NCBI GenBank assembly: GCA_900753245.1
Contig: CAADYJ010000080.1
Location: forward strand, 3,228 to 67,227
Origin: Clostridia bacterium
GTDB lineage: Bacteria; Bacillota; Clostridia; TANB77; CAG-508
Length of the DNA: 64,000 nt
Direction of reading: 5' to 3'
Shown: positions 30,025-49,600 of the stretch, one piece after another
Numbering within the stretch: position 1 is the stretch's first letter
Layout of the letters: each line of letters starts with the position of its first letter
Program-made: the position numbers and the translations under genes
The notes under the pieces: model-generated
Told to the model about the DNA's origin: nothing
What the model saw: the letters and a program-made list of their open reading frames with translations, nothing else
The model's database searches: none

Positions 30025-32523
30025 CTACTTTTGTTTTATTTTTGCAACTATAACTGTCATATCATCTTTTTGTATTCCATAGTTATTGTCAATTGCTTCT
30101 TGTAAAATAATGTCTGCTATTTTTTGTACATCTTCTGTATCCATTTCTTCTAATAGGAATTTTAGCCACAATTCTTTATTTGTATATTCTGTACAAGACT
30201 CTAATATTCCATCACTACACATAACTAAAATGTCTCCATCTTCTAAAGCTCTATCATATACAACTAAATCTATATCATTTAATATTCCTGTTGGAAGTGA
30301 TAACGATTTTAGTATTTCTACATTTCTTCTATTTTTTACATATGTTGGACATGCTCCGTTTTTTATAAATTCTAATTTTCCTTCATATAAGTCAAGAATT
30401 GCTACATCTAATGTTGCGTACATATCTTCTTCTCCTGTAGCAGATAAAGTAGAATTTATTAGTCTTAAAGAGCTATCTTTTTCAAATCCTGAAGATAATA
30501 ATTTTTCAAGCATTGCTATTGCTGTTTTACTTGCTTTTCTTGCTTCTTTTCCAGAACCTTTTCCATCACTTATAGCAAGTAAATATTTGCCATCATCTAG
30601 TTTTGTTTGTAAAGATGTATCTCCTGATATACTAGAGCCTGCTTTTGTTGTTCGTGCTATTCCTATTTGCAAACTTTGCTTATCTTCTGTTACATATGTA
30701 AATGCACAAATTGTTTTATTACTTCTTAAGCCACACTCTTGTTTTTGTAATACCATTTGCTCTCCAAAAACTTTGCTTATTAATTTTCCCATTTTCTTAA
30801 TATCGCAAGGTTTCTTTTCCACATCTTCACACGTATTTGTGTATAACGTTGCTTGTATTCTTCCGCTTTCTTCCTTTTTTATAGAAATATTTTCAATTTT
30901 TATATTTTTTTCTTCAAACAAGCATTTTATTTGCTCTTTTTCTTCTGTAAATTCTTCTTTTTTGTTTTCTTCTATTTCGTCTGCAAGTGCACCTAATGCT
31001 TTAGAAACTTCTTCTAGTTGGTTTGAAACTGCTTTTTTATTTTCTTCTAGTTTCTTTTTCCATATAAAGTTTAATTTACTTACTTTATATGCTTCATTAA
31101 ATGCTTTTACTATTTGTTCTATATCTTCTTGTACTACATCATTTATATAGTCTTTTTCAAAACCTACTATATAGTTGTTATGGTCTGCAAATACTTTTAT
31201 TACATCATTTGCATCTATTTTTTCTTTCTCTAGTAGTATTTCAAAAAGATCTTCTACTGTTGTATCTTGTGGGTCATAAACATCATCAAATAATATGTTT
31301 GCTTCCATTCCTTCTAAGTTATTTTGTAGTTCTCTTTCAAATATTTTAAAATTATCTTCTTCTTGTTTTTTTAATTCTTCCTCATCTACTATTGTAGCTG
31401 CGGCCTCTTTATAAGTTTTTGCCATTTCAGATATTGTTTCTGACATATTGTTTAAACGGAATATTGCTTCTTTATTATCTTCTAAAACTCTTCCTGTTGT
31501 TTCTGGTAATAATTTTGTTTTTCCATACAAGTCTTCTATATCTATTTTTACTTTTTTAGGAACTGCAAGTAATCCTAATGAAGCTATTAAAATTTCTTGT
31601 ATATGTATTATTGAAGATGTATTTCCATTTGTTACATATGTAAGTAGAACATTTCCTAATATAAACCCTATTATTACTCCTATTTTTCCTAGTTTGTTAA
31701 ATATTCCTGCTATCATTCCTGAAAGTGCATATGTGGCTATTATTATTGGTTCTCCATTAGATATAATTCCTATTACACTTCCTATTGTAACACCTGCAGT
31801 TGCTCCTACTAATATTCCATTTTTCCAACCTAATATTAGTACTATTAATATGCATAATATGTTTCTTATGCTAAATCCAAAAGCATATAGTGAACCTAAA
31901 CTACTCACGGCTATAGCTATTAGAAGACTTGCTCCCATTATTTCTTCTATTGTATATGCTCTTTTTTCGCCTATATTTTCTATTACAGATATTGAATTTA
32001 CAAATATTTTATAGAATATGTATGCACATATGCTATACATTAAACTAAATATTAAATCGTATACATAGAATTCTTTAAAGAATATTCCTGCTGCTTGTAC
32101 TATGAAACTACTTATTAATAAACGTAAACCTAATTTTCTATTTTCATTTACTTCATTTTCAAATTTTGGTGCTCTTATTAACATACTTACTAAAACTAAA
32201 AGTATTGTTAATATTGTGTTTAGTGCGTTTGTACTTCCAAATGAAATAAATGTACCTATTATTACTACTATAGATAGTATTCCTATTGGGATGCATGAAC
32301 TTAAAGCTGCTACTAATATTGCTACTCCAAATGGTGCAAGTTTTACTGCATCTGTTCCTATTCCAACAAATGAAAGCATAAACGCTAATATATATAATAT
32401 ACATGTTTTTTTGTTAAAACATTTTTTTAGTGTTTGTTTTATATTTGTTTTTTTATTAAATTCTACATCCTCTTTTCGATTTTCTTCGAAATCTCTTGCT
32501 ATATTTTGAAACATCCTTACCAC
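30025..32523 (-). CDS. spoIIE: stage II sporulation protein E (about 10 TM helices + PP2C phosphatase)
   Basis: 832 aa. N-terminal polytopic membrane domain and C-terminal PP2C-like motifs (ISDGKGSGKEA...MCSDGILE). Confidence 0.8.
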   Translation of the reverse strand: MVRMFQNIARDFEENRKEDVEFNKKTNIKQTLKKCFNKKTCILYILAFMLSFVGIGTDAVKLAPFGVAILVAALSSCIPIGILSIVVIIGTFISFGSTNALNTILTILLVLVSMLIRAPKFENEVNENRKLGLRLLISSFIVQAAGIFFKEFYVYDLIFSLMYSICAYIFYKIFVNSISVIENIGEKRAYTIEEIMGASLLIAIAVSSLGSLYAFGFSIRNILCILIVLILGWKNGILVGATAGVTIGSVIGIISNGEPIIIATYALSGMIAGIFNKLGKIGVIIGFILGNVLLTYVTNGNTSSIIHIQEILIASLGLLAVPKKVKIDIEDLYGKTKLLPETTGRVLEDNKEAIFRLNNMSETISEMAKTYKEAAATIVDEEELKKQEEDNFKIFERELQNNLEGMEANILFDDVYDPQDTTVEDLFEILLEKEKIDANDVIKVFADHNNYIVGFEKDYINDVVQEDIEQIVKAFNEAYKVSKLNFIWKKKLEENKKAVSNQLEEVSKALGALADEIEENKKEEFTEEKEQIKCLFEEKNIKIENISIKKEESGRIQATLYTNTCEDVEKKPCDIKKMGKLISKVFGEQMVLQKQECGLRSNKTICAFTYVTEDKQSLQIGIARTTKAGSSISGDTSLQTKLDDGKYLLAISDGKGSGKEARKASKTAIAMLEKLLSSGFEKDSSLRLINSTLSATGEEDMYATLDVAILDLYEGKLEFIKNGACPTYVKNRRNVEILKSLSLPTGILNDIDLVVYDRALEDGDILVMCSDGILESCTEYTNKELWLKFLLEEMDTEDVQKIADIILQEAIDNNYGIQKDDMTVIVAKIKQK

Positions 32524-32876: not shown

Positions 32877-33500
32877 TTATTCAGTTGGCGGTGTGAGGTA
32901 GCAAGTTAATTTTTCTTTAGTTGCAATATTTCTAAGTGAAAATTCTTGTTCTCCATCCCAGTTAGAATATTCTGGATGGTATTCTACATATTTAGGCCAT
33001 TCTGAAACTTTTGAACCTAATGCAACTTTAAATCCATATCCATCCAAACCTTTGTTAAATAGTATTTTGTCTGCTGATTTTAATTGGTAATGCTGGTTCT
33101 CTTCCATATTAATAATATACTCTTCACTTTCATTATATATTACTATTGCTGGTTTGGCAGATTCTAATTGTCCCATATAATCTTCCATCGATGTAAAATC
33201 TGTGATGTATGTTACTTCACCTGGATCTGCAGAATCTGTTTCTTCTGCTGTTGTTTCTTCCTCTACTGTCTCATCTTCACTTGTTGTTTCCTCTGTTACT
33301 GCTTCATCTTCTTTTGTTTCAGGTTCTGCAGTAGGTTCTTCTTTTACTTCTTCAGTTGCTTCTTCTACTGTTGGCGTTTCGTCTGTAGCAACTTCTGGCT
33401 GTGTTTCTGCTTTTGAATTGCCACACCCAACAAGTAAACAAGCAATTAAGCTTAATGTAACAAGTAACCGCATTGATTTTGTTTTGTAATTCTTTTTCAT
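32877..33500 (-). CDS. lipoprotein with an acidic Thr/Glu-rich linker
   Basis: Lipobox LLVGC after a basic N-terminus. Then ETQPEVATDETPTVEEATEEVKEEPTAEPETKEDEAVTEETTSEDETVEEETTAEE low complexity. Unknown C-terminal domain. Confidence 0.55.
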   Translation of the reverse strand: MKKNYKTKSMRLLVTLSLIACLLVGCGNSKAETQPEVATDETPTVEEATEEVKEEPTAEPETKEDEAVTEETTSEDETVEEETTAEETDSADPGEVTYITDFTSMEDYMGQLESAKPAIVIYNESEEYIINMEENQHYQLKSADKILFNKGLDGYGFKVALGSKVSEWPKYVEYHPEYSNWDGEQEFSLRNIATKEKLTCYLTPPTE

Positions 33501-33675: not shown

Positions 33676-36600
33676 CTATTTTTTTAGTATTTTTCTTCTA
33701 ATAAATACTATTCCTCCAGCTAATAAACCAATTGCTATAATTGTTGTAATTGTAATTATAATGTATAATCCTGCATTACCAAATGGTGGTAATATTTTTA
33801 CTATTTCTGCTCTGTCTGAATCTATTTCTTGTGGTTCCATTGTTGGATCTTGATTTCCTACTACAGAATATTCGTTTCTTCTTCCTACATTGTTGCTTGT
33901 TTTTACTATTTCTACAATATTCTTGTATGTTAAATCATCTGTTTTGTTCTCTGCAGTTATTAATTGTGTTAATACTAAATTTGTACTTGCACTTGATTTT
34001 TTATTATCATAAAGATCTGGCACTAACTCTGTTTTAGCTATTGTAGCATTTTCTTTGGTTGTAATTATTGTATTATATCGTTCTACTTTTGATTTCAAAT
34101 TCTTATTTACTAAATCTTGAGTTTTATCTTGAGTTATTAACTTATCTTGAGTTATTACTTCCCAATCTGTATTTTCAGCTAAACTACTATCAAATTGTAA
34201 GTTATTTGCTACATAGTCTATTATTTGATTTGCAGTTGTTTTTACTATTGTGTTTTTATCGGCTACTGTTCCTGTGTAATAGAATTGATTATCTTTATAG
34301 TCTACTTCACCAACATTTGTTACTGTTATTTGGTAAGTAATTTGTATTTTTGCGCCATGCATTAATTCTTCATCCATGCTTAATTGAATTAATCCTAATC
34401 TAGAATCTTTTGTATTTTTTGCTCTAATGTTTGCTATACTTCCAAATTTATTTTCATCTAACATATTATTTTTATATCCTGTGTCATATTTTTTGTGATC
34501 TTTCCATAATATATTACTTGCTGTTTGTTTTGCATCAAATAGTGTAGATCCATCTGCTAATGTAAGTTTTACATTTGTTACTTCTTTATTTATTTCAAGT
34601 TGTGCTTTTGGTCTTTCTTCTAATCCTAAATCCACATTTTGAACTTTATATATTGAAGTATCTTGTACTGCATCTTTAGTATCTGTTTGTGTTCTATCAT
34701 ATTCGAATTCTATAACCATCATACCTGTTTCTGCTGTCATTTTAGTATTGTCAATTAAATCTTTTATTAAGTCTTCTCTTGAATTCATTGTATTATAATC
34801 AGCTTTATGAGCTGCTAATACTTCTGCTTTATAGTTTGTAACATTTTTTTCTGAATATTCTATTACTTTGTTTCTACGAGATTCTATATCTTTTGCATCT
34901 GATGCGTTTTGATTTTTGCTTAAAGATATACTATCCGCAGTAGTTATATCATACAAATATCCTTTTTGTTCATTATCGTTAAGTTGTTTCTTTATTGCTG
35001 TTTCATTATTTGTACAATTATCTGTATTATAAGCATGTATTTTTGTTATTATTTCTCCTTTTTGTTCTTGTCCATTTACCCATGTAGAGTTTCTTCTCCA
35101 TTCATATGTTTTGTTTTGAGGTATATCTTTTTGATATGTTGTAGATTTATAGTCTTGTCCATTGTAAGATTTGCTATTTAAGCCTCCTAATTCGCTTGGA
35201 TATACAGTTCTTACTGTATCACCATATATAAATCTTACTACATATTTACCAGGCATAAATGATTTAAATGCATATTTTCCTTTATGTTCATTTCCTAAAT
35301 CTATATTTCCTACAATGTTAGATAAACCTATAATTGGTGTTTCAGATTGTACAGTTCCTGAACCAGTTCCTTTTCCTATTGCATTTGTTCCAAAGTTACC
35401 TATTTGATTTGTTCCAAATTCTCTCCATACAAATTCTTTTCCATCATCTAATAATTCTACTAATTGTACAGTTACACCATCTATTAATGTTTCTGAGTTT
35501 TCTCTTAAACCATTTCCTATTGCTACTTTTTCTCCACTTACTTTTCTTTCATCTTCCCATACAGTTCCAGATATTACTCTATTATGATCATCATTGCGAT
35601 CTATTTTTAATTTAATATTTGGTGCTTTATCTGTATCGTCTTCAAAGTTTTTATAATTAGGTGTTCCATCTTTTGGTACATCTGTTGGATTTAAGTTACC
35701 TGGATTTGAATCTCTATCTACAATACCTGCTGGTTGTCCTGATACATCTCCTTCTACGTTTGGTATTGTTGTTCCTTCTTTATATTTAGTAGTATATCCA
35801 TTTATTTCTGCAATATTTTCTTTACCTACTCCAATTACATTTCCTGTTGCTAAATCTTCATCTAGTATAATCCAATCTTCATTGTTTTCAGTCTTTTTGT
35901 TTACTTCGAATGTTAAGTAAATATATGCTGTTTTTCCTGAAGTTAAATATAAACCTTCTGCTTCACTTCTTACATTATTTCCATTATTATCTATTTCTTG
36001 AGAGTTTTTGCCTAAACCAGTAATATATAAATTTTTATAATGGTTTATATCTGTTCTTGTTCCAGCTTGTTTATATATGCTTGCATTATTACCATTTACT
36101 AAGTATTTTTTATTGCTAACTTGAATATATGAACGTTCTGGTACATAAGTTAAATCTTCATCATAGTAATCTACTATTTCGTCTGCTCTACATAGTATGC
36201 TTTGTGATTGGTTTCTTACTCCTATTTTGTATGTAATATATACTTTTAATTCGTCATCTTTACTCTTTCCAAGTTCATTATAATTTCCGTACATACTTAC
36301 TTTGTATGCATAATCAGATGCATATAATTCTCTAGTATATTCTGTATTGTAATAACGTTTTTCTGAATCTATAAGTCCTATATCAGATAACCTTAAATCA
36401 ATATCCCATACATTTTGTACATTTTCACTTCCACAGTTTGGACATGTATTTACACCATAATCTTCTGAAAAGTTTAATTCATCATTTGTTCCTGTTCTTC
36501 CACAATTATTGCATTTAAATTTATCTAATTTATTGTATGTGTATTCATGTGTTTGACCATTTGTCTCTAGTGTTACTTTATATACATCTTTATTTAAAGC

Positions 36601-39600
36601 TAAATCTGAAGTTCTTCTTAATGTATATCCTTGATTAATGTATAAGTTAGCATCATTTTTGTATAAGTAATGTATTTTTTTTTCTATTACATTACTTCCA
36701 TTTATTTTTAACCCCTTCAATAGATTTAAATTGTATGTTGTCGTTCTCTTCTCTTGTTTATTTTTATCTTCTATTAATTCTTCATCTCCTGTAGCTATAA
36801 TAAAATTTGAATATATTGGATATAAATCGTTCTTACGCACTGTTTTATTGTTTTGTGTTACATCTTTTCCTGTATAAGAATTTAACATACAATCTTTTAC
36901 ATATTGTATCATTTCATTAATTTCAGTAGTATTACTATTTGATTTTTCTTTTATTAAGTTTCCAAATTCATCTATAACAGCTTCTTTTGTTTTTACATAT
37001 TCACCATTTTCGTTAAGAGTATAACCTTGTAATTGTTTTTTAGTAAATGTTTTATTTGTTCTATTGTTTTCTTCTGTTACAGTATAGTTTGCAGGTGATG
37101 AACCTATTGATGCAAATCTTGCATTTATTGCTTTTCTTTCTTCTTGTACATCTGTACCATTAGAATTTATATTCCAGGTTCCTTCTTTATTTTCTTCATA
37201 CTTAACCCATCCGTCGCCTTTATCAGATGGACTTACATATTCTACTGGTTCATAATATTGTGAATTATATGTAAATTCTACAAAATATTGATACATAGAA
37301 TTTATTCCTGTGAATAAATACCTACCATTAGAATCTGTTTTAGTTGGATTTTGTATTTGTTCTTTTTTTCCTTTTTTGTCTGTACCTTCATATGATGTTA
37401 ACTCAGCTTTTATTTTATTTCCATTTTTATCATATCTATATAAAGTTACAATTACGTTTGGCATAGGTTTATCAGTTTGATTATTTATTGCTTTTGATTT
37501 ATCGTATACATTATCATTTTCTGTCATCTTTCCGCCTTTTGTGTCTTCCCAAACTTGTCCGCCAAGTTCCATTGTTAAATCTAAATCATATGGTGTTATA
37601 GTTACTGTATACTTTTTCCATGTTCTTTTTCTACTTGTTAACATTGCTAATTTTTGTGCATTGTATTTTATTTTTGTATCTTCTTCCCAAGTTTGAAATC
37701 TGTATTTATAATAATAATACGTCCTTATTGTTATTTCAGTATCTCCTTCACCATCATTATCAGTATCTACCCATTTTTTATCACATCCACTTTCTGTTCC
37801 AGTATTTTCCCATTTCAATCTTCCTCTTATCTGAAGAATTCTTCCTTTTCCAGTATATGTTGTATATTTAGCTTCTGTAGTTTGTAAATATGCGAAGTTC
37901 ATTTTTACTTCTACTGATGTAGGATAATTAGCTTCTTCCGCATTAAATTTTACCCAAAATTTTTCACCACTTGTTGGATATTCATTTCCATTAAGTGTTA
38001 TAATTTGTATTTTATCTAATCCTAATTTTGTAACATTATTATTTACTGCTGAATTTTTAGTTTCTATCCATATATCTTCTATATATGAAAATTTAAGATT
38101 ATCTGGATACTGTACTGAAAAAGGTCCTGCTATATATGTCTTTTTATCTCTTTCAACTACTATCTTAGAATCCGAACTAAATGGTACTACATGATCTTCA
38201 TAATTTTTTAAATATGTATTGTAATAATCTTGATATTTATCAGCTTCTTCTTTTAAGGATGTTGCATTACTATTACTATCTGAGGTATCGTAAGCATCCC
38301 CTTCATTAAATCCAGGTTTATCCTTCCATAAAGCGTCTTGTATTACTTGTTCATCTGCTATATCACTAAATGTTGATGTATAATTTCCCTTTTTAAATTT
38401 TATTTTATCACTAGTAGGGCTAAATTCTGGTCCTGAACTTAATATATATGCTTCTTTATTATTTTTAGGTGTTGAGCTTCCCGCTTCTGACCATGTAGGT
38501 GTTTCGCAATATACGTTTCCATAATATTCATTCTCTCTAAAATCATCTATAATTGTTGGAGTTGTAAAACTAAATCCTTTATAATATTGAAATAACTGTG
38601 TTGATACATTAGTTGATGCTTTATAATAGTCTCCTCCATCTAATAGCTTTTTCGCTTCAGCTTTTGCTGAGGCTTTTCCTGCATATGTATAATAATTTAT
38701 TATTCTTTCATCTATATTTCCTGTAACATATTGATCAATTCGGTTAATAACTGGTGTAAATCTTATACTTCCATGTTTTTGTTTGCATAATAATAAACTT
38801 AGAGTATCTTTTATTGTTTTATTATTTTCTCCTCCAGATATGCTATAATTATGACTACCATTATTATAAATTGTAGGTAAGAATTCTAATTTATTTGTAT
38901 TAGCATCTGTATGTTTCCAATCATAATGTGCTGTTTTATCCCAAGAACCTGGATTTTTTGTTATTTCTGTTGTGTTAGCTGAAGCATTAAAATGTTTTTT
39001 ATTTATATCTTCTATTTCTTCAAGCGAAGCTCTCACTTTACTTACAAGTACTCTTTTTATTCCTCCACATGTATATTCAGTTACATTTCCTACTTTTACA
39101 GTTGCTGTACATTTATATTCTTTATATGTGCATTTATATGTTCTATCATTTATATCTTCAAATACTGTTACTGTTCCAAGATATTGTAATGGTCCAACAT
39201 GATTATCTGGGTCAAGTCCATAATTATATTTTTTTCCATTATAAGTATATTCTGCATTACTATATATTAAACTTGAATCTTGCACTTCTTTTTGATAATC
39301 TTGCTCATCATTTTTATACGTTTCACAACAAGGATACCATTTATGCCAAATTGCATAATTATTACATGTTGCTTTCTTTTTTCTATGCTCTATAGGCGCT
39401 TCTTCATGTTCATCTGGATTATAAACTAATTCCGTATGACTTGGATGTTTTGAACATTTATATTCTATAGCTGTTATACATGTTGGATCAGGATCGTTGG
39501 CATTGCATTTTTCTAGATAAGGTTTATGATTTTTTGAATTTATTTTTGTATCATAATCTTTTCCACATGATTTACAATGATTTTTTCCTTTAGTAACACA

Positions 39601-39972
39601 ATCCCCTTTAGAAACTGGTGTTTGGTCTCCTACATGATTATTAGGATCTATATCTCCTACATCGTAATCTTTATTACATGATGTACAATGCATTTTTTTC
39701 TTTGATATACAATTAGCTGCTGATTGTGTTTTTTGTGTTCCTGTATGGTTATCTGCATTCTTACTACCTTTTCTATATTCTTGTTTGCACTGTTTACAAT
39801 ACCATACTTCTCTACTTGTACAAGTAGCATCTGCTCTCTTTTCTTGTTTTGTATCGTCATTATGTGTACATTTAGTTGCTCCAATTGATTGAGTAGAATA
39901 TATTACTGTTAAACCTGCAAAAGCTAAGAATAACGCTATTAATATAGTTATTATTTTCATTCGTTTTTCCAC
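33676..39972 (-). CDS. giant secreted cell-surface protein B1 (2098 aa): signal peptide, Cys-rich repeats, Cna-B/SdrD-B-like and DUF11-like domains, C-terminal sorting-signal-like tail (ILPPFGN + TM + RRKILKK). Probable GTG start
   Basis: Cna-B-like units, for example QVWEDTKGGKMTENDNVYD...NVIVTLYRYDKNGNKI...TDSNGRYLFTGI and ISGTVWEDERK...GVTVQLVELLDDGKEF. C-terminal ...IQITYQITVTNVGEVDY.... Paralogous to B2 over the C-terminal ~900 aa. GGAAGGTG RBS lies 7 nt before the GTG, which is 19 nt after the A1 stop. Confidence 0.75.
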   Translation of the reverse strand: MEKRMKIITILIALFLAFAGLTVIYSTQSIGATKCTHNDDTKQEKRADATCTSREVWYCKQCKQEYRKGSKNADNHTGTQKTQSAANCISKKKMHCTSCNKDYDVGDIDPNNHVGDQTPVSKGDCVTKGKNHCKSCGKDYDTKINSKNHKPYLEKCNANDPDPTCITAIEYKCSKHPSHTELVYNPDEHEEAPIEHRKKKATCNNYAIWHKWYPCCETYKNDEQDYQKEVQDSSLIYSNAEYTYNGKKYNYGLDPDNHVGPLQYLGTVTVFEDINDRTYKCTYKEYKCTATVKVGNVTEYTCGGIKRVLVSKVRASLEEIEDINKKHFNASANTTEITKNPGSWDKTAHYDWKHTDANTNKLEFLPTIYNNGSHNYSISGGENNKTIKDTLSLLLCKQKHGSIRFTPVINRIDQYVTGNIDERIINYYTYAGKASAKAEAKKLLDGGDYYKASTNVSTQLFQYYKGFSFTTPTIIDDFRENEYYGNVYCETPTWSEAGSSTPKNNKEAYILSSGPEFSPTSDKIKFKKGNYTSTFSDIADEQVIQDALWKDKPGFNEGDAYDTSDSNSNATSLKEEADKYQDYYNTYLKNYEDHVVPFSSDSKIVVERDKKTYIAGPFSVQYPDNLKFSYIEDIWIETKNSAVNNNVTKLGLDKIQIITLNGNEYPTSGEKFWVKFNAEEANYPTSVEVKMNFAYLQTTEAKYTTYTGKGRILQIRGRLKWENTGTESGCDKKWVDTDNDGEGDTEITIRTYYYYKYRFQTWEEDTKIKYNAQKLAMLTSRKRTWKKYTVTITPYDLDLTMELGGQVWEDTKGGKMTENDNVYDKSKAINNQTDKPMPNVIVTLYRYDKNGNKIKAELTSYEGTDKKGKKEQIQNPTKTDSNGRYLFTGINSMYQYFVEFTYNSQYYEPVEYVSPSDKGDGWVKYEENKEGTWNINSNGTDVQEERKAINARFASIGSSPANYTVTEENNRTNKTFTKKQLQGYTLNENGEYVKTKEAVIDEFGNLIKEKSNSNTTEINEMIQYVKDCMLNSYTGKDVTQNNKTVRKNDLYPIYSNFIIATGDEELIEDKNKQEKRTTTYNLNLLKGLKINGSNVIEKKIHYLYKNDANLYINQGYTLRRTSDLALNKDVYKVTLETNGQTHEYTYNKLDKFKCNNCGRTGTNDELNFSEDYGVNTCPNCGSENVQNVWDIDLRLSDIGLIDSEKRYYNTEYTRELYASDYAYKVSMYGNYNELGKSKDDELKVYITYKIGVRNQSQSILCRADEIVDYYDEDLTYVPERSYIQVSNKKYLVNGNNASIYKQAGTRTDINHYKNLYITGLGKNSQEIDNNGNNVRSEAEGLYLTSGKTAYIYLTFEVNKKTENNEDWIILDEDLATGNVIGVGKENIAEINGYTTKYKEGTTIPNVEGDVSGQPAGIVDRDSNPGNLNPTDVPKDGTPNYKNFEDDTDKAPNIKLKIDRNDDHNRVISGTVWEDERKVSGEKVAIGNGLRENSETLIDGVTVQLVELLDDGKEFVWREFGTNQIGNFGTNAIGKGTGSGTVQSETPIIGLSNIVGNIDLGNEHKGKYAFKSFMPGKYVVRFIYGDTVRTVYPSELGGLNSKSYNGQDYKSTTYQKDIPQNKTYEWRRNSTWVNGQEQKGEIITKIHAYNTDNCTNNETAIKKQLNDNEQKGYLYDITTADSISLSKNQNASDAKDIESRRNKVIEYSEKNVTNYKAEVLAAHKADYNTMNSREDLIKDLIDNTKMTAETGMMVIEFEYDRTQTDTKDAVQDTSIYKVQNVDLGLEERPKAQLEINKEVTNVKLTLADGSTLFDAKQTASNILWKDHKKYDTGYKNNMLDENKFGSIANIRAKNTKDSRLGLIQLSMDEELMHGAKIQITYQITVTNVGEVDYKDNQFYYTGTVADKNTIVKTTANQIIDYVANNLQFDSSLAENTDWEVITQDKLITQDKTQDLVNKNLKSKVERYNTIITTKENATIAKTELVPDLYDNKKSSASTNLVLTQLITAENKTDDLTYKNIVEIVKTSNNVGRRNEYSVVGNQDPTMEPQEIDSDRAEIVKILPPFGNAGLYIIITITTIIAIGLLAGGIVFIRRKILKK

Positions 39973-39990: not shown

Positions 39991-42900
39991 CTATCCTAAT
40001 ATTTTTCTCTTTATTACATAAGCACTTGCTGTTATAGCACTTATTATTCCTAAACTTAATACTATAAATAATATTGTCTCACCAGTTTTTACTGTTAAAA
40101 GTACATCTGCTGAAGACATATCATCTTCTCCAGATACTTTATTTGCTGGTGTTGAGTCTACATCTTGTAAGCCTAAGTCATTATATGCTTCTTGTATTTC
40201 TGCTGTATTATTAATTAACCCTACATTTTCTTGTGTTAGCTTTTTAGTTAATAATAATGTTATTTCTTTTGTTTCTCCTGGATTAATTAAAGTATTTGCT
40301 AAACTTGAACTATAAATTGCTCCATTTTCTCCTTGATACCAATCTTTATTTAGTTCTGAATTGAATTTTAGTTCTGCTGGAATGTAGTCTGCTATTTTTT
40401 TAGCATATCCAGATACAGCACCTTCGTTAGTTACTTTAATTTTATATTCTATTACAATTGTTGTAGAATTAATTTGTTTTCCTACTAAATCACGTTTTGC
40501 AAGTTTTGTATCTTTATAATCATATGTTTTTGTTCCTGTAGAATCTTGAACTGTTATTTTTGATACTGCTTTGTCTAGTTTTAAGTCAAATTTAGGATTT
40601 ACTACTAACCCTAAGTCTATATTATAGATATTTGAATTTGTTACTTCTATTTCTTCTGTTATTGCTGCTGTTCTTTTTTCTTCTCCTAATATTATTTGTG
40701 TATCTATAGCATCTGAATTTAATGTTGAATCTACTCCTTGCTTTCTATAAGTAGTGCTACTGTAATTTGCTGTATCGTATAAGAATATTACTGTATATTT
40801 TCCTTTTGGTACTTCTGTAAATGTGTATTTTCCATCTTCTGATGTTGAAATTTTTTCTTTTTCTAAGTTTCCTGTTACATTGTTTAATAACATAACTTCA
40901 ACATTTTGCATTTTCTTTTCTTGTTCATCTTTTTGTCCATCTTTATTTTCATCTAGCCATACTTGTCCACTTATTCTTTTGTTTTCTGACACATTAGGAT
41001 TATCATTGTCTGTAATTTCTGTAGCCTTTAAAGTATGTGAAATAGAATTTATTTCTATTTCTTTTTTATCTATTGTTGCTGTTATTTTATTTGTTATTTT
41101 TGTATCTTCTTCAACATACCCTACTCTAGCATATATCTTTATTTCTTGCTTTTCACCATCCTTTAATGCTAATATAATTTTTAGTTCATTGTCTTCTGTT
41201 AAAACTATTCCTTTTATTTCTTCTTCTTTTAAATCTTTCATTATTGTAGCTTTTTCAAATACTAATTCTTTTGGAAATTTATCTATAAGTTTTATTCCCT
41301 TACTTTCTCCTGTTTTACTTCCTTTAGATTCTATTATAATTTTATATTCAAATTCTTCTGTTCCACTTATATTTTCTCCTTCTGGTATAGTACAAGATTG
41401 AGTTATACTTAAAGAATTTTTTATAATTGTTATTACTTTTTCGTCTGTATTTTCTTTTTCTACATTATCTGCATATACAGTAGTTTTTATTTTTAAATCT
41501 TTAGAATATACTTCTTCTTTTGTTTCTTTTACTTTTAAATTTATTTTTAAAGTTTGAGAGTCTTGAATTTTTAGTTCTAATCCTGTAATTTTCAAAATTT
41601 CTGTTTTTTCATCATATGTTATTTTCGATTTATCTATTTCTTGTTTTCCATATGTTGCTTTTATAAATTCTAATTCTGTAGGTATATTAATTTCTATTAT
41701 AGTATTTTTAGTTTCATAATATCCATATATGTTTAACTCATAATTAACATTCGTTCCTTCTTCTACATTTTTTATATTGTTTTCTTCATTATCTACTGAT
41801 ATTTCTTGTTCTAAAGAAAAAACCTTATTTCTTACATAGTTAGTTATTTTATCTGTTTCTATTTTGGCTTCTAATCCTTCATATTCTATTGTAGCTTGTG
41901 TCGAGATCTCTTCTTTTTCATTAATATCTCCATCTATTCTTTCTATATAAAATTTAAATATTTTTTCTATTGTTTCTCCTTGTTTTAATGTTGATATTGT
42001 ACATATTCCATCTTTAATATTTTCATCATCTCCTGAATATATTGCATTTTCAGGAGTTGGAACTGTTATTTTTAAATTATTAGCTGCTAAATCTCCAGAG
42101 TTTGTTACTTTAACTGTATATTCAATTTCATCGTCTGATAATATTGTTGCTCCATTTTCTACATTTGCACTTATACTTGCTTCTATTTTTGGTCCTTGTC
42201 CTGTTGTTGCACCAACTTTTGCTGTTTCTTGTCTATCTTCTACTGTTCCTTCTTCTAAATTATTTGAATAATATACTGCATATGTTTCAAATGAAGATTG
42301 GTTATGTTCTAGTCCTTCTTCTACATTTGCATTATAATTAAATGTTATTGCCTCTCCTGTTGGCATAACATAATCGTTTGTTACTATTAAATAAGATTTA
42401 ACTTTACTTAAATCTGTTGGTTCTGCTACCCATCCATTTGATTGTACATTTAAGTCTTTTGTTGCTTCTCCATTTTCTGAGTAATAAACTTGTACTTTAT
42501 TTGAATCTATTCCTTCTACACTTATTCCTGTTGTTAAGTCTAAATCCATTGTTGAGTTTAAATCTTTGTTGCTTAATATTTCTTTGTTTCCTGCAAATGG
42601 TGTTCTTCCTAAGATTGAAACATTTTCTATATCGTTTTTATAGTTATTCATTACACTCATTTTAAATGTTGCTTCTTTTTGGCTTGATAGTATTGGTAAT
42701 TCTGCAACTTTTTCTTCACCTGTAATTGATGTTAATTCTTCTGCTCCATCTTTATAGTTACTAATTCCATTCATTGTAACTATTCCAACTGGTGCTGAAA
42801 AACTTATTTTATTTGTTACTTCATTTATTTCTGAGTTTTCATCATTTTCGTTTGTTACTACCATTGATATTTCTGAATCTATATTTGGTGTTAGTTTGTT

Positions 42901-44904
42901 TACTGTTATGTCTGCTGTAATAACTACGTTTGTTCCTCCTGCTAAATTTTCTAAATTATATTGTGTTTGTGTTCCTTGTAATTCCAATGCTATTGTTTTT
43001 GTTCCATCTGCATTTTGTATTAAGTTTGCATTTTTTACTGTTAATTCTTTATCAAATAATACTTGTATGTTTTTTACATTAATACTTTCTATATAAGAAG
43101 GTAATTTAATTTGTATTGTTGGATTTTTATATAGTTTGCAATCTAAAGAGTTTGTTTTTAGTATTGCTTTTATTTCTACATTTTCGTTTGTTACTACTGT
43201 TGATAGGTTTTGATTGTTTATTACTAATTCTGTTTCAAAACTTGGCTCTACAAATGCTACTACTTTATTTGCTGTTTTTTGTTCTACTATTTGTCCTGCA
43301 TATATTGCATCTACAGTTGTATTTATTTCTAATGAAGTAAATTTTTCCATTTGCTTTTTGCTGTATTTTATATCTGTTTTTATTGCTTTTGTTGCTTTTA
43401 CTTTTATTTCACCTTCTGTTAATGGTTTGCTTGTTTCCATTGCAATTTCAGAGGCTTCTATATTAGATATGTCTACTTCATATTTTTCTTTGTTTATTGT
43501 GTCTATTATTGTGTTTCCTACTTTTATATTAATAAATCCATCTTCTCCTAAGAATTTATTAAACTCTTCTTTTTCTACACTTACTTTCTTAATATATTGT
43601 GTAGCTGCTCCTTTTGTTTTTTCGTCTATTACAAAGTTATCTGTATTTAAGTTTATTGCTATGCTATCTACTATATCTACTAATCCTATATTGGCTGTTA
43701 TGTTTTCTTCGTATTGTGTTTCATTTTTTTCTGTTGCTTCATAATTTGCATATATATAACCTTTGCTTAATGTTTCTACGTTAGTGTTTACTTCTGTATT
43801 TATTACGTTTCCTATTTGATCTTTTAATAGTATTTCTCCTTTTGCTTCATTTTCTATTATGTCTTCTTTTGCTCCATATGTTGTTATTTGTGCTTTTGTT
43901 TGTATTTGTATTTTATTTCCTTCTTCTGGCACATTGTTTAATATTTCTTGTGGATATATGTATGTTATTATGAATTTGTCTTCTGCATTTTTACTCCAAG
44001 AAATATTTCCTTGTTCATCTATTTTGTTTTCTACTTTTATTGTTATTTTTCCTGTTTGTTCGTCATATTGATAGTTTTCTTCGTTAAAGTTTTGTGCGGT
44101 TTCGTCTCCATTTGTTGCTTTTGTACTTTCTGCTACTATTTTTACTGAAGTTGGTTTTTGGTTTGCTATTACTGGTGCTATTATTTCTATATTTTCTTCT
44201 TTTACTGGCATAGCATTATTGGCTACTGATGATTTTATTTGTGTTTGTAACATTACTCCTTGGTTGTTTGCTACTGTATATGGTATATATCTTGTAATTT
44301 GTTCTTCTAATGCTAATGTTGTTTCTTGTGTCCAATCTAGTTTTACTTTTATTTGTGCTTTTATTTGTTTTTCTTTTCCTTTTGCATCTATGTATGTTCC
44401 TGTCAATTTCGCTATGTTTTCTTGACTAAATTGGTTTAATGTTATTGTATCTTTATTGTCAAAAGATATTGGGATTTGAACACTTACTTGTTTGTCTTTA
44501 TTGATTTGGTTTAGTTCTATGCTATTTTCTTCTTTGTTTAATTTTGCTACTGCTTTATTTTCTTGTGCTAAGTCTTGTAGTTTAAAGTTTGCAGTTTTAT
44601 TTTCCTCATTTGCTCCAAATTCTATTTTTGCATTTTTTAAATATCCAGCGTTTTTAACAGCAATACCTATGTTAATGCTGTTTTCTTCTCCTATTTTGCT
44701 TTCTTTTTCGTGTGTCTTGCTATTTTGACTTACAAAGTACGCGTCAAATTCTACATTTTCGTTGTTTGTTTTCACACCTTGTACTTCTAGTTCATTTTCT
44801 GCTGCATATACTTTTTTCGCATAAATTCCTATTGTTGATGCATATGCTAAAAGCATGACCATTACTATTTCACTTGCTATTATTTTGCGAATTATTTTTT
44901 TCAT
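39991..44904 (-). CDS. giant secreted cell-surface protein A1 (~1637 aa from the second ATG): multiple Ig-like/DUF11 repeats, a Cna-B domain, isopeptide-pilin-like C-terminal domain, C-terminal LLTVKTGE + TM + KRKILG
   Basis: Signal peptide MKKIIRKIIASEIVMVMLLAYA. DUF11-like YTVKVTNSGDLAANNLKITVP. Cna-B ISGQVWLDENKDGQKDEQEKKMQNVEVMLLNN...DGKYTFTEVPKGKYTV. GGGGAGG RBS sits before the second ATG (44904). Paralogous to A2. Confidence 0.75.
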   Translation of the reverse strand: MKKIIRKIIASEIVMVMLLAYASTIGIYAKKVYAAENELEVQGVKTNNENVEFDAYFVSQNSKTHEKESKIGEENSINIGIAVKNAGYLKNAKIEFGANEENKTANFKLQDLAQENKAVAKLNKEENSIELNQINKDKQVSVQIPISFDNKDTITLNQFSQENIAKLTGTYIDAKGKEKQIKAQIKVKLDWTQETTLALEEQITRYIPYTVANNQGVMLQTQIKSSVANNAMPVKEENIEIIAPVIANQKPTSVKIVAESTKATNGDETAQNFNEENYQYDEQTGKITIKVENKIDEQGNISWSKNAEDKFIITYIYPQEILNNVPEEGNKIQIQTKAQITTYGAKEDIIENEAKGEILLKDQIGNVINTEVNTNVETLSKGYIYANYEATEKNETQYEENITANIGLVDIVDSIAINLNTDNFVIDEKTKGAATQYIKKVSVEKEEFNKFLGEDGFINIKVGNTIIDTINKEKYEVDISNIEASEIAMETSKPLTEGEIKVKATKAIKTDIKYSKKQMEKFTSLEINTTVDAIYAGQIVEQKTANKVVAFVEPSFETELVINNQNLSTVVTNENVEIKAILKTNSLDCKLYKNPTIQIKLPSYIESINVKNIQVLFDKELTVKNANLIQNADGTKTIALELQGTQTQYNLENLAGGTNVVITADITVNKLTPNIDSEISMVVTNENDENSEINEVTNKISFSAPVGIVTMNGISNYKDGAEELTSITGEEKVAELPILSSQKEATFKMSVMNNYKNDIENVSILGRTPFAGNKEILSNKDLNSTMDLDLTTGISVEGIDSNKVQVYYSENGEATKDLNVQSNGWVAEPTDLSKVKSYLIVTNDYVMPTGEAITFNYNANVEEGLEHNQSSFETYAVYYSNNLEEGTVEDRQETAKVGATTGQGPKIEASISANVENGATILSDDEIEYTVKVTNSGDLAANNLKITVPTPENAIYSGDDENIKDGICTISTLKQGETIEKIFKFYIERIDGDINEKEEISTQATIEYEGLEAKIETDKITNYVRNKVFSLEQEISVDNEENNIKNVEEGTNVNYELNIYGYYETKNTIIEINIPTELEFIKATYGKQEIDKSKITYDEKTEILKITGLELKIQDSQTLKINLKVKETKEEVYSKDLKIKTTVYADNVEKENTDEKVITIIKNSLSITQSCTIPEGENISGTEEFEYKIIIESKGSKTGESKGIKLIDKFPKELVFEKATIMKDLKEEEIKGIVLTEDNELKIILALKDGEKQEIKIYARVGYVEEDTKITNKITATIDKKEIEINSISHTLKATEITDNDNPNVSENKRISGQVWLDENKDGQKDEQEKKMQNVEVMLLNNVTGNLEKEKISTSEDGKYTFTEVPKGKYTVIFLYDTANYSSTTYRKQGVDSTLNSDAIDTQIILGEEKRTAAITEEIEVTNSNIYNIDLGLVVNPKFDLKLDKAVSKITVQDSTGTKTYDYKDTKLAKRDLVGKQINSTTIVIEYKIKVTNEGAVSGYAKKIADYIPAELKFNSELNKDWYQGENGAIYSSSLANTLINPGETKEITLLLTKKLTQENVGLINNTAEIQEAYNDLGLQDVDSTPANKVSGEDDMSSADVLLTVKTGETILFIVLSLGIISAITASAYVIKRKILG

Positions 44905-45366
44905 AGTTCTTTTTCCTCCCCAATTTTTTGACATATTTTTGGCTTATTATATATATTAACTAAATTTTTGCATATTTTTTGTCGTTTTTCAAGGTGTTTT
45001 CCTTTGATAGCAAGCGTTACAGCGTTTATCTCTTTACGGAAACTAGTTTTCAGCTTTTTTTATTAAATTTTAGTTACATTGTTACATTTTTATTTCTTAT
45101 TGCTTTTTTGCTGTTTTTTTCCATTTTTTTATTTTTTATATTTTTTGTATTCCTTCTGTTTCTAGTATTTTATGTTTTTTATTGTATTTTTTGTTTTTAT
45201 TGATTTTTTTTATTTTTTATTTTTTTGTCTTTTTTAGCTTGTAAATACTACGGCAATTGGATTTGCGTGTTTTTTAACTTTTATCTTAATTCAACTAAAT
45301 ATCTAACTTGTACTTTTGTATAAATTGATTAAAGTTATAATTTATAATACTTTTTCTTGTTTTCTG

Positions 45367-45566: not shown

Positions 45567-46568
45567 TTGACTAAAAAAAATCTTCCAGCTCCTAAAATGG
45601 ATGTTGTTTTTCAATCTCTTTTTAAAAAGGGAAATGAAAATATAACTATGGCACTTATTTCTGACATTATAGGTAGAAAAATTAAAAAAATAGATTTAGA
45701 TAAAAACAAAAGTTTACTTAGAGAATATACTAAAGATAAATTGGGAATTTTGGATCTAATTGCTGTTTTAGACGACGGTGATATTTGTAATATTGAAGTT
45801 CAACTAGCTGATAATAAAGATATAGAAAAACGCTTATTATATTACCATTCTAAAATTTATTCTCAACAGATGTTGGTTGGTGACAAATATGTTGATTTGA
45901 ATAAGACTATTTCTATTGCTTTATTAGATTATAATTTAGAACAATTACGTCATGTAGAAAAAGCTCATACTTCATGGCATATTAAAGAGGATGAAATTAA
46001 TGGATTAATATTGACAAATGAGTTAGAGATGCATATAATAGAGTTACCAAAGATAAGAAAGATGAGTAGGAATGGTAAAAAAGATGCTATTATTGATTGG
46101 ATGTTATTTTTGGATAATCCAAATAATAAGGAGGTTTCTGAAATAATGAAAACAAACAGAGAAATAGAAGAAGCAATGCAAAAGTTAGAGGAAATCACTT
46201 CTGATGAGGAATTAATGAGAATTATTGATTTAAGACGAAAAGCAATATTAGATGAAAATCAAAGAAGATATATTGCAGAAAAAGAAAGAAAAGAGGCCGT
46301 AGAAGAAGCTGTTAAAGAAGGGCTTGAAAGAGGCATGAAACAAGGTATAGAACAAGGCATTAAAAAGGGTATTGAACAAGGCATTGAACAAGGCATTGAA
46401 CAAGGCATTGAGCAAGGAATCGAGCAAGGAATCGAGCAAGGAATCGAGCAAGGCACTAAAAATGAAAAATTTAGAATTGCTAAAAATTTGATTTCTCTTA
46501 AATATGAAATTGATAGTATTGTAAAAATAACTGGCTTATCTAAAGAAGAAATTGAAACTATTTTATAA
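45567..46568 (+). CDS. Rpn-family (YhgA-like, PD-(D/E)XK) recombination-promoting nuclease / putative transposase, intact. TTG start
   Basis: 333 aa. Contains the D...DxxxE(V)Q block (ILDLIAVLDDGDICNIEVQLAD), a coiled-coil C-terminal half, and the conserved tail ITGLSKEEIETIL shared with the 7644 pseudogene. Confidence 0.7.
   Translation: MTKKNLPAPKMDVVFQSLFKKGNENITMALISDIIGRKIKKIDLDKNKSLLREYTKDKLGILDLIAVLDDGDICNIEVQLADNKDIEKRLLYYHSKIYSQQMLVGDKYVDLNKTISIALLDYNLEQLRHVEKAHTSWHIKEDEINGLILTNELEMHIIELPKIRKMSRNGKKDAIIDWMLFLDNPNNKEVSEIMKTNREIEEAMQKLEEITSDEELMRIIDLRRKAILDENQRRYIAEKERKEAVEEAVKEGLERGMKQGIEQGIKKGIEQGIEQGIEQGIEQGIEQGIEQGIEQGTKNEKFRIAKNLISLKYEIDSIVKITGLSKEEIETIL
46344..46451 (+). repeat. 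Coding microsatellite: 9 tandem 12-nt units (GGCATTGAACAA / GGAATCGAGCAA) encoding (GIEQ)n in the Rpn protein
   Basis: Read directly. The protein shows GIEQGIKKGIEQGIEQGIEQGIEQGIEQGIEQGIEQ. Confidence 0.85.
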
Positions 46569-46633: not shown

Positions 46634-49600
46634 TTATTTTTTTAAAAATTTCTTTTTGATAACAATTATTCCTATTACTAAAATTCCTACGGCTGCGAAT
46701 ATTGTGCTTGTTATAATTATTATATTCTTCATTTCACCAAATGGTGGTAATATTTTCACTACTTCTGCTTTATCACTATCTACTTCTGCTGATTCTGACG
46801 TTGGATCTTGATTTCCTACTATAGAATAACTGTTTATTCTACCTACTGTATTACTTGTTTTAACTATTTCTACTATGTTTTTATATGTTAAGTCTGAGCT
46901 TTCATTTTCTGGTGTAATACTTTGTGTTAGATATAAAGTTTCTTCTGCACTACTATTTCCTCCATTTGTTTGTGAGTAAATAACTGGTACTAATGGTGTT
47001 TTATTAATTGCACTATTTTCTGTTGTTGTTATTATTGTATTAAATGTATTTACTTTGTCTTGTAATCTAGCATTTACTAACTTTTGATTTGTTATTTCTT
47101 CTTTACTTATTACTTTCCAGTTAGAGTTTTTAGTATTATCAAATTGTAAATTATTTGCAACATAATCTATTACTTGGTTTGCTGTAGTTGTTGCTACTTT
47201 CTTTTTATCTGATACTATTCCTGTGTAATAGAATTGGTTATCATTATAGTCTGTTTCTCCTACGTTCGTTACTGTTAATTTATAAGTAATTTGTATTGTA
47301 GCACCATGCATTAATTCTTCGTCCATACTTAATTGTACTAATCCTGATTTTTTTGCATTAGAATTTCTTATTTGAGTTAATATTCCTTTTGCATAAACTG
47401 GTTCATATGTTTCATTTTTCTTCCACAATACATTTGTTGCTGTTTGCTTTGCATCAAATAATACTGAACCATCTGCAAGTACTACTTTTACATTGTCCAC
47501 TTTTTTGTTTATTGCAAGTTGTGCTTTTGGTCTTTCTTCTAATCCCAAGTTTACGTTTGCAACATTGTATTGTATGTCATTGTTTCCTTGTTGATTTCCT
47601 AATTCTATTTTATCTTTTTCTACTTCTACATTAATGTTACCTGTTTCTGCTGTCATGGCTGTTAATTGTTTAAATTTTTCTATTTGTTGTCTTAATGTTT
47701 CTTTTGTTGTTCCTTCTGGAACATTTCTATAAGATGCTAATAATTCTGCCATTTCGTTTGTTATATTGTTAGAAGAATTTTTTATTGTTTCTTGTCTACG
47801 GCTTGCAATATCTTTTGCCACAGATACATCTTTTCCGTCTAATGCTGTTATATTATATAAATATGTTCCTGTTTCATTTTGATTTGCATAGTCTTTATAA
47901 CCATATATATCTTTATTTAAATATTTTAAGTAATATTGTCCTTCTTGAGATATTCCTGGCTCATATGTTGTTGATTTATAGTCTTGTCCATTGTAAGATC
48001 TTGAATTTTTTCCTTTTGCTCCTAATGTATTTGTTACGTCTGTTTGTGTATTTGTTAATACTGTCTCATCGTTGTCTCCGTAGATAAATCTTACTATGTA
48101 GTTTCCTGGTACAAATGATGTAAATACATATTTACCTTTTGTATTATCTGTTACTGTTTGTACTATGTTATTTGAATTAATTATTGGTTCATATGTTCCT
48201 TGGCCTGTTAAAAATTCTTTCCATACGTATTGACTACCATTATCCATTAATTCTACTAATTGTACTCTTACTCCGTCAATTCCTTCTTCTCCTTTTTCTT
48301 TTTTACCATTACCTGTTGCTGTTGCTTGAGCTTTTTCATATTCTGTTCTATTATCTTCCCAAGCTGTTCCTTCTATTGTTCTGTTGTCTTTTTCTAATAT
48401 AACTCTTAAGTTTATTGCTTTATCTGTATCATCTTCAAATTTATTTACATCTACTGGTGACTCAATATTTCCTGGTACAGAATCTCTATCAAAAAGTCCT
48501 GCTACTTTATTATTATCTGTTAATCCTACGTTTGGAATTTCTGTTCCTTCTTTATATTTTGTGCTATATCCATTTATTTCTGCTATATTTTGTTTTCCTA
48601 CATCTTGTTCATCTAAATAGATAAATCTTGATGGATCCTTTCTTACTTTAAATGTTAAGTAAATATTGGCTGTTTGTCCTGATGATAAATATATTTCATC
48701 TAAGCCTGTAATATATAAGTTGTTATACCCTTCACTTTCTAATGATGTTCTTGTATTTGCTGAATATTTACTTTGTTCACTTGCTTTTACATTTTCATAT
48801 TTTACCTTGTTAGCTCCACTTCCAATTTCTATATATGAACGATCATTTACATATTCGTATTCTTTATCATAGTAATCTACTATTTCTTCTATTTTTGTTC
48901 TTATTGATTGTGATTGGTTCCTTACCCTAATTTTATATGTTACATATACTTCTAATTCTCTTTGCTCAGTTTCTCCATATTTTTGAGCTATTTGATTAGT
49001 ATTCAATGAATTTTGTTCTGAGTAATCTTCTACTTTGTATAGGTAATCTGATTTGTATATTTCTCTTGAATATTGTGTATTATAATATGCTGCATCTGAA
49101 AGTCTTACTCCTATATCCCATATTGTATTGTCGCCTTCTTGAGTTACTTGTTCCTCTTTTGCTCTTTGGTTATAGTAGTATGTTTCTTGTCTTCCTTTTA
49201 TTTCTATTGTTGCTTTTTCTATTTCTTTCATTAATGCTACATCTGCTACTTCTCTTCTTGCTAAGCCAAAGTCTATTTGTAGATGCTCTGGATATAATGC
49301 TTTATATTCTACTCCCATTATTGTTCTTGATTTATATCCTATAGTATATTTATCATATATTGGATATACTTTTCTTTGAGTATCGTTTCCTGTAAATGAT
49401 GATATTCTATTGTCTTCTATGAATTGTAATTTTCTTTTTGTTTCTTCTGTGTTTCCAAATTTTTCTAATGCATTTTTATATGCTTTTTCATAACTTTTTG
49501 TTTCTGATGCTTGATCTATTACGTATTCATATATTTCTTTTATTCCGGATTCAGATTTTTCATTTATATCACTTGTATATGTATTTCCTGATGCATTACT

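Follow-up and report, generated by a model that had tools for sequence, protein, structure and literature searches.

A cysteine-rich array at the N-terminus of a giant Clostridia surface protein, its place in an uncurated Cys3-His repeat family and its relation to an IgA protease

Why should a giant surface protein of a Gram-positive bacterium, belonging to a class of proteins that is as a rule poor in cysteine, begin with a dense cluster of cysteines and histidines? The question is raised by a 64,000-nucleotide stretch of DNA from a Clostridia bacterium (assembly GCA_900753245.1, contig CAADYJ010000080.1, positions 3,228 to 67,227), called here the window, and by one of its products, the 2,098-residue adhesin-like protein B1. 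The same window encodes a paralogue of B1, called B2, and two further giant proteins, A1 and A2 (Table 1). An earlier note, made from the sequence alone, had pointed to three features: a zinc-ribbon-like triple repeat at the B1 N-terminus, an internal pair of CxxC knuckles in the same protein and a His/Cys cluster in B2. It had suggested that they reflect either metal binding or disulfide knots at the tip of the B proteins. All three features are present where the note had placed them. With respect to the first, our reading is that B1 probably has, over residues ~35-302, five arrayed units, of which three are canonical and two degenerate, plus a Cys-bearing tail; the units are members of a Cys3-His family and would make up a zinc-stapled rod.

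Architecture of the array

With residues counted from the GTG codon at 39972, B1 runs from a signal peptide through the Cys-rich array, a head domain and an SdrD_B-like/beta-sandwich core to a C-terminal ILPPFG motif, transmembrane (TM) span and basic tail. The array follows the pattern C-x7-C-x2-[C/H]-x12-13-H in four in-register units with a 37-residue period, the first three ligand sets (C51-x7-C59-x2-C62-x13-H76, C88-x7-C96-x2-C99-x13-H113 and C125-x7-C133-x2-C136-x12-H149) lying exactly 37 residues apart. Unit 4 keeps the spacing, with His replacing the third Cys (C165-x7-C173-x2-H176-x12-H189). Beyond it we tentatively recognise a fifth, degenerate unit in which 'CC' (C215-C216) replaces CxxC, a knuckle variant found also in one of the family proteins described below (P0001), and then a tail that may be a sixth, degenerate site. 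The repeat noticed earlier is real, but the count of three was too low, there being five units plus a three-Cys tail. Each of the five is moreover preceded by a His, 12-16 residues ahead of its first Cys (H37, H76, H113, H149 and H189).

The local enrichment is considerable: 19 of the 278 residues from 33 to 310 are Cys (6.8%), against 10 of the 1820 elsewhere in B1 (~0.5%) and 1.1% in 25 other open reading frames (ORFs) of the window. Chance is excluded as the source of the pattern, since residues 33-215 contain four matches to it, while among 100,000 shuffles of the same segment none had three or more and only 14 had two. The units share only 19-30% pairwise identity and Tandem Repeats Finder detected no 111-bp tandem repeat at the DNA level in the array; they must consequently be old and diverged. 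Following cleavage of the predicted signal peptide, mature B1 would begin TKC35TH37, which places the array at the mature N-terminus. C35 was considered as a lipoprotein cysteine and rejected because there is no lipobox.

A repeat family in Firmicutes surface proteins

Pfam and NCBIfam scans of B1, B2, A1 and A2 placed no model on the repeat, and scans of the family proteins introduced below (eight and seven of them) likewise left the repeat itself uncovered. When 1.84 billion representative proteins were searched exhaustively with HMMER for a profile of four B1 units, 13 proteins came back at E<=1e-3, the lowest E-value being 1.7e-7. Eleven of the 13 (P0001-P0007, P0009, P0010, P0012 and P0013) are secreted or anchored proteins carrying 2-19 tandem copies of a related unit, and local iteration on these eleven yielded 106 units and a profile that contains no B1 sequence whatsoever. 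The consensus of the 106 units, TEATCTEAGYYIYCSRCGKDTEEIEIDPDNHTGE, can be written ATC-x3-G-x5-C-x2-C-x14-[N/G]H. Its three Cys columns hold Cys in 100, 100 and 99 of the units, and the three-Cys-plus-His positions are 94-100% conserved across the eleven otherwise unrelated proteins.

Applied to B1, this B1-free hidden Markov model (HMM) scored 43 bits over the whole protein (the scores of the single units are in Table 1; in unit 5 it scores only the DPDNHVG tail), and it matched nothing else among the window ORFs in any frame. A comparison by hhalign of the B1 units with 41 independently pattern-extracted family units gave a probability of 97.1% (E 6e-11). A 40-row alignment shows no variation at H5, C19, C29 and C32 and keeps H48 in >90% of its rows, and when B1 31-200 is aligned over four units with 16 family segments the register is kept throughout. 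On these comparisons of sequence, the B1 array consists of divergent copies of a Cys3-His repeat that is widespread, though uncurated, in the surface proteins of gut Firmicutes. A word-indexed protein search with B1 33-327 gave no matches, but this is an unreliable negative, B1 and 13 members of its cluster being in the collection searched; in such searches the family profile returned six short fragments and the B2 head domain three matches.

The unnamed arrays of these gut and rumen Firmicutes resemble that of B1 both in the unit and in the linker motif. Their units are ~36-45 residues long, joined by DPxNHxG or PxxGH linkers, and most of the arrays have, by inspection, such a His at both ends. 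They range from the 141-residue secreted protein P0007, which is a signal peptide and two units, to arrays of up to 19 units, and they are accompanied by SLH, Flg_new/List_Bact, LRR or FIVAR domains or by a TM anchor. Where they differ from B1 is in their setting: they usually lie between the anchor and a head, a position suited to a stalk, and none accompanies a B-type core, whereas the B1 array is at the free N-terminus.

Distribution of the B proteins and of the array

A first genome scan, with B1 alone as the query, found no relatives. A second, with an alignment of B1 and B2 against one genome per GTDB species, found 76 homologous loci with 82 B homologues and 72 A homologues. Where loci were inspected, A was upstream of B; two A-B pairs are present in several (L031, L032, L052, L073 and L076). 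Homologues occur in metagenome-assembled genomes of uncultured gut Clostridia (Clostridium sp. CAG:245 and CAG:273, for example) of human, rabbit, mouse and chicken. The repeat profile matched none of the 225 large ORFs of these loci, the 82 B homologues included, and the homologues contain 0-15 cysteines in total, against 29 in B1. We therefore regard the array as a lineage-specific N-terminal addition to B1.

Within the species, an identical B1 (taken from the ATG at 39960) occurs on five ENA metagenome contigs and B2 on 11. All of the unit Cys and His are invariant in ten near-full-length B1 variants (a 90% cluster). The only Cys that varies is C156 (window 39505-39507), a spare one in unit 4, which is Tyr in two strain variants (P0028 and P0036) with no compensating change.

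Relation to the Thomasclavelia ramosa IgA protease

Among PDB sequences the family profile had one good match, 9qa6_A, an IgA protease, with E-values of 7e-6 (core profile) and 3.2e-8 (His-to-His profile), over stretches 851-882, 937-978 and 1101-1143 of the chain. This chain ends in a His tag and its numbering is offset by +30 from that of UniProt; with the offset, the stretches fall within ZBD1 (879-1008) and ZBD2 (1101-1171) of the T. ramosa M64 IgA protease (Gomis-Ruth lab, PLoS Pathog 2025, PMC12237041). These domains are the CTD2 and CTD4 of a second study, where they were termed 'metal-associated periscope domains' (Tran, Frenette & Holyoak, PNAS 2025, PMC12415215). The link from B1 to the protease runs via the family profile, with no direct pairwise match: a PDB sequence search with B1 33-327 itself found nothing.

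The cryo-electron microscopy model of the protease covers residues 32-876, so that ZBD1 and ZBD2 are unresolved in it and were modelled by artificial intelligence, at pLDDT values (predicted local distance difference test) of 85-88 (PMC12237041). They are depicted there as small sheets strung together; putative zinc ions of a structural kind are placed where subdomains meet, held by 2 His + 2 Cys or by 3 Cys + 1 His (PMC12237041). Small-angle X-ray scattering showed CTD2 (880-1008), in isolation, to be a rod at full extension, in agreement with its AlphaFold2 model (PMC12415215). Neither paper found a fold match for ZBD/CTD2 (PMC12237041, PMC12415215).

The likeness to B1 comprises an H...C...CxxC...H unit, predicted small three-stranded sheets, a tandem arrangement, an extracellular location, a C-terminal anchor and the lack of a solved structural homologue. 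Judged through the profile, the B1 repeat is the same module as the ZBD1/ZBD2 subdomains, a kind recognised in 2025 in one protein. There are differences as well. B1 has at least five units at its extreme N-terminus, and the protease has 3+2 subdomains in a C-terminal stalk. The B1 units are mostly Cys3His with an x7 first loop, and the protease sites mostly Cys2His2 with an x9 loop; in its Cys2His2 sites the first Cys is Ala and extra His residues stand beside the knuckle. The earlier note had said that a characterised domain with a non-metal function would count against its reading; this is not what emerged, the domain being now known but described as putatively zinc-binding.

Its label of zinc ribbon fits only loosely. 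Classical zinc ribbons and rubredoxins share with the B1 units a CxxC knuckle at a beta-hairpin, but each N-terminal unit has one knuckle, a lone Cys and a His instead of two knuckles, there is no match to a solved fold and no Pfam zinc-ribbon model reaches threshold anywhere in B1. Iron-rubredoxin sites were rejected, as there are only three Cys per unit. The G5-E repeats of SasG and Aap, Zn-dependent periscope or stalk modules, resemble the proposed arrangement in being zinc-linked, single-layer sheet units set end to end as a rod (a comparison made in PMC12415215), and are not homologous. The Aap zinc sites lie at the surface, use His and acidic residues and bridge two molecules, while the Cys and His of B1 would fully coordinate an internal, structural ion.

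Predicted structure and a possible zinc-stapled rod

AlphaFold2 modelling of B1 31-200 from a 17-row alignment gave a mean pLDDT of 83.5 and a predicted template modelling score (pTM) of 0.53, with three short strands per unit and twelve in all. In each unit of the model the first Cys follows strand 1, the CxxC is at the turn between strands 2 and 3 and the linker His comes after strand 3. Foldseek found no meaningful match for this model in the PDB (best E 0.18, TM-score at most 0.18).

The repeat, its homology and its predicted secondary structure are shown above; from here on we infer the identity of the ligand, the shape of a rod and any role beyond rigid extension. Each unit would fold as a small three-stranded beta-sheet with a structural Zn2+ ion in tetrahedral coordination, its ligands being the lone Cys that follows strand 1, the CxxC at the turn from strand 2 to strand 3 and the His of the conserved D-P-x-N-H-x-G linker. 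Because this His sits between units, the metal would fasten each sheet to the next and give a stiff, end-to-end rod. A His at the start of every unit, including H37, which precedes unit 1 though no earlier unit exists, would be expected of a linker His that supplies the missing ligand of a neighbouring unit and thereby staples the two; which flanking His, the one before or the one after, serves which unit can be assigned only provisionally. The rod would project from the N-terminal end of mature B1, beyond the head domain as seen from the cell, and the C-terminal ILPPFG/TM/basic signal would hold B1 at the cell surface.

The internal ribbon, the B2 loop and the head domain

The internal CNNCG-x18-CPNCG motif of B1 has been inserted into a B-core loop, as comparison with B2 and ~30 other homologues shows. 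Only three homologues (L018, L019 and L021) have it too, with all four Cys and the CxxCG/CPxC signature kept. Here the full two-knuckle signature of a classical zinc ribbon is present, and Pfam Zn_ribbon_8 scores 17.4 bits on the insertion, below its cut-off of 34.4. It is probably a small, clade-specific zinc ribbon inserted in the loop.

In B2 the His/Cys loop forms the last part of the head domain and is followed closely by the SdrD_B-like domain. A nearly identical motif, H-C-x-G-H-S-x-G...C-x-G-C-C-Y, is found in L036, L038 and L065, and many other homologues have different His/Cys-rich loops at this position: in 22 of 57 homologues a 30-residue window there holds at least six Cys plus His, compared with a maximum of four anywhere downstream. 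The loop is consequently a recurrent feature of the B family, and it is probably a metal site. B1 has at the corresponding position an acidic, DxDxDG-like stretch (DTDNDGEGD) in place of the His/Cys residues. The comparison of VDTDNDGEGDTE in B1 with the B2 loop suggests that a Zn-type site has given way to one of the Ca type in this loop.

The three motifs of the earlier note are not a single phenomenon: the array is confined to the B1 lineage, the ribbon is in three homologues and the B2 loop is a family feature that B1 lacks. Their supposed location at the tip of the B proteins holds only for the array; the ribbon is midway along the protein, and the B2 loop closes off the head.

The thioester domain (TED) of TIE adhesins carries a Cys in [YFL]C-psi-[DNEQ] and a Gln in TQxA-phi-W. 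The B head has somewhat similar motifs, [YF]C[IV][EQ]xG and, 80-110 residues on, [KI]Q-x-A-[IVL]-W. All 37 of the homologues aligned keep the Q and the W, and 23 of the 37 have C in the Cys column. B2 has LYCAAKG and KQEAIW (head residues ~60-175, window ~50790-51135), and B1 has Gln in place of the motif Cys (residues ~455-550, window ~38320-38610). We take this resemblance as a lead only. Pfam TED matches one of the 37 head domains (E 0.013), an AlphaFold2 model of B2 30-445 from five sequences has a pLDDT of 40, and a profile of the 37 heads matched among PDB sequences only a designed repeat, spuriously.

Zinc, disulfides or a functional tip

The choice between metal and disulfide knots was left open by the earlier note. 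A disulfide-held, knotted module of the EGF-like type with no metal would suit a region that is extracellular and Cys-rich, the more so as metal binding is only predicted across the whole family. It is nevertheless very unlikely: the units have an odd number of Cys (three) together with a conserved His, the third Cys is His in unit 4, the units of the IgA protease have another residue for the first Cys and rely on 2 His + 2 Cys, and the 24 Cys of that enzyme form no disulfide that was either observed or predicted (PMC12237041). To this can be added the loss of the spare C156 with no change in a partner. The host, moreover, is a gut dweller with a SpoIIE gene, presumably therefore a spore-forming anaerobe; in such an organism extracellular thiolates are stable. 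Three Cys and a conserved His per unit, the interchange of Cys and His, the uncompensated loss of C156, the presumed anaerobic host, the conservation of the ligand positions across the family and the homology to the protease lead us to favour structural zinc over disulfides for the B1 units. Even less can be said for a mere compositional accident, which the shuffle test excludes, or for a nucleic-acid-binding zinc finger of intracellular type (C2H2- or rubredoxin-like), and we find either scarcely credible. There are weak local PDB matches to C2H2 fingers and rubredoxins (E 1e-3 to 0.2 with the B1 profile, 4e-5 to 0.1 with the family profile), but their extent is limited to the Y-x-C-x2-C knuckle, the array stands behind the signal peptide of a surface protein, and the true homologues are all secreted or anchored. 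The C2H2 finger proper (C-x2-4-C-x12-H-x3-5-H, beta-beta-alpha) was rejected because the second His, expected at +3 to +5, is missing and the model consists of beta structure throughout.

A different possibility is that the metal sites are functional, the array being an adhesive or sensing tip that works, for example, by Zn-dependent self-association as in Aap/SasG or by ligand binding in place of a lost thioester warhead. The position of the array at the free N-terminal end instead of between anchor and head, its lineage-specific acquisition, the Gln that the B1 head has in place of the thioester-like YC..G motif's Cys, present in 23 of 37 homologues, and the fact that the PNAS authors leave additional functions open (PMC12415215) all speak for it. 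However, four ligands would saturate the Zn and leave no bridging site (an argument of PMC12415215), an adhesive or ligand-binding role is putative and the thioester assignment is itself only a candidate; we consider this reading unlikely. An extended version is slightly less likely still: that the zinc-stapled array of the B1 lineage is no passive stalk but a newly acquired distal tip that has taken over an adhesive or sensing role from a head that has lost the warhead Cys and the His/Cys loop, and that the Cys3His unit defines a large, uncurated class of metal-dependent rods in gut Firmicutes surface proteins, with luminal zinc governing their rigidity and thereby their display at the surface.

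The zinc-stapled rod, which we prefer, also has several observations to reckon with. The five AlphaFold2 models of B1 31-200 span pLDDT values from 83.5 to 40.6, with the pTM of 0.53. The family spacing is C-x9-C-x2-C-x14-H, and the first loop of B1 (C-x7-C) is two residues shorter; the near-invariant Gly after the first Cys is absent from B1 units 1, 2 and 4, which are atypical in this respect, and the family HMM scores of units 4 and 5 are weak. Invariance of the ligands within the species says little, as few other positions vary. Both papers grade the zinc of these domains as putative, that of the IgA protease included (PMC12237041, PMC12415215). Finally, an array at the free end is a poor fit to a simple 'periscope', given that other members have theirs between the anchor and a functional domain, and for this reason we still allow for some function at the tip. 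All of these points weigh against the rod.

For the window itself the result is one of annotation and reveals no new mechanism. The repeat has no Pfam or NCBIfam model and had been described previously in one enzyme only, the IgA protease of T. ramosa, where it was seen as a metal-binding fold that may be new; a kind known since 2025 in one protein is extended here to a repeat family, with B1 as a divergent, N-terminally placed array in an uncultured human-gut Clostridia species. Since this unit recurs in long tandem arrays in many Firmicutes surface proteins that are otherwise unrelated, B1 among them, the family would be worth curating. The 150-residue, four-site fragment of B1 and the two-unit P0007 are compact objects on which zinc binding and zinc-controlled stiffness could be tested. 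The rule that Gram-positive surface proteins are poor in cysteine would need some qualification: in anaerobes, such Cys as are present can be metal ligands.

Gene setting

The window has a G+C content of 27% and is a segment of a Firmicutes chromosome, with nearly all of its genes on the minus strand. Between SpoIIE and MinC lie four giant ORFs, A2, B2, A1 and B1, arranged as two tandem A-B pairs (33676-56331). The start of B1 is called in public assemblies at the ATG at 39960, giving 2094 residues. B1 603-2098 and B2 231-1559 are 38% identical, and A1 and A2 have their C-terminal ~300 residues in common (48%). Common to the four proteins are a signal peptide, beta-sandwich domains of the SdrD_B-like or DUF11 type and, at the C-terminus, a motif with a TM span and a basic tail behind it.

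Table 1. Features of the window, by position within it; B1 and B2 residues in the fourth column are those of the protein concerned.
Feature	Position	Strand	Residues or length	Remarks
B1	33676-39972	minus	2098 aa	from GTG at 39972
B1 signal peptide	39877-39960	minus		MKIITILIALFLAFAGLTVIYSTQSIGA; cleavage site predicted from sequence
Unit 1	39748-39864	minus	37-75	H37, C51, C59, C62, then NADNH76; family HMM 30.2 bits; three predicted strands
Unit 2	39637-39747	minus	76-112	H76, C88, C96, C99, then IDPNNH113VG; family HMM 25.0 bits
Unit 3	39529-39636	minus	113-148	H113, C125, C133, C136, then NSKNH149; family HMM 12.5 bits
Unit 4 (Cys2His2 variant)	39409-39528	minus	149-188	H149, C165, C173, H176, then NPDEH189; spare C156; family HMM 3.9 bits, in register
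Unit 5 (degenerate)	39202-39408	minus	189-257	ATC203, C215-C216, ~30-aa insertion, then LDPDNH258VG; tentative assignment
Tail	39067-39201	minus	258-302	H258, C281, C288, C302
B1 counterpart of B2 loop	37735-37785	minus		CDKKWVDTDNDGEGDTE; acidic
B1 internal CNNCG-x18-CPNCG	36433-36513	minus	1154-1180	loop of B core
B-type C-terminal signal, B1	33679-33795			ILPPFG, then TM span, KKK tail
A1	39991-44934		1647 aa	
A-type C-terminal signal, A1	39994-40101			[VI][KV]TG[EDK], then TM span, KKKVL
PD-(D/E)XK transposase gene	45567-46568	plus		between A2-B2 and A1-B1 pairs
B2	46634-51313	minus	1559 aa	B1 paralogue without Cys-rich array
B-type C-terminal signal, B2	46637-46753			ILPPFG, then TM span, KKK tail
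B2 His/Cys loop	50150-50230	minus	362-388	SHSHTAHCDGHSDGKGGITYCSGCCYS
A2	51319-56331		1670 aa	
Two-component system and housekeeping genes	17-27 kb			
SpoIIE gene	30025-32523			
MinC, PBP, MreD, MreC, MreB, RadC	57-63 kb			

The C-terminal signals are of two types. The ILPPFG of the B proteins (with the variants ILPPYG and ILTPFG) and the [VI][KV]TG of the A proteins are each kept in ~75 homologues (loci L001-L076). The tripartite layout is that of a sortase substrate, but the motif is not LPXTG in either the A or the B proteins, and they were rejected as LPXTG substrates. Pfam and NCBIfam have no anchor model that matches the A or B C-termini, and no sortase gene was seen in the window.

Two neighbouring genes on the minus strand encode proteins that end in zinc ribbons, a Band_7/SPFH protein with a double zinc ribbon (17440-18681) and a Tim44-like protein with Zn_ribbon_3 (18736-19665). 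The repeat profile matches neither, and they are unrelated to the B1 repeat. Directly downstream of B1, at 32877-33500 on the minus strand, is the gene of a predicted lipoprotein of 207 residues with the lipobox LVGC and a long, acidic, Glu/Thr-rich linker, for which no family match was found. On the metagenome contig L077, B1 is followed by this same gene.

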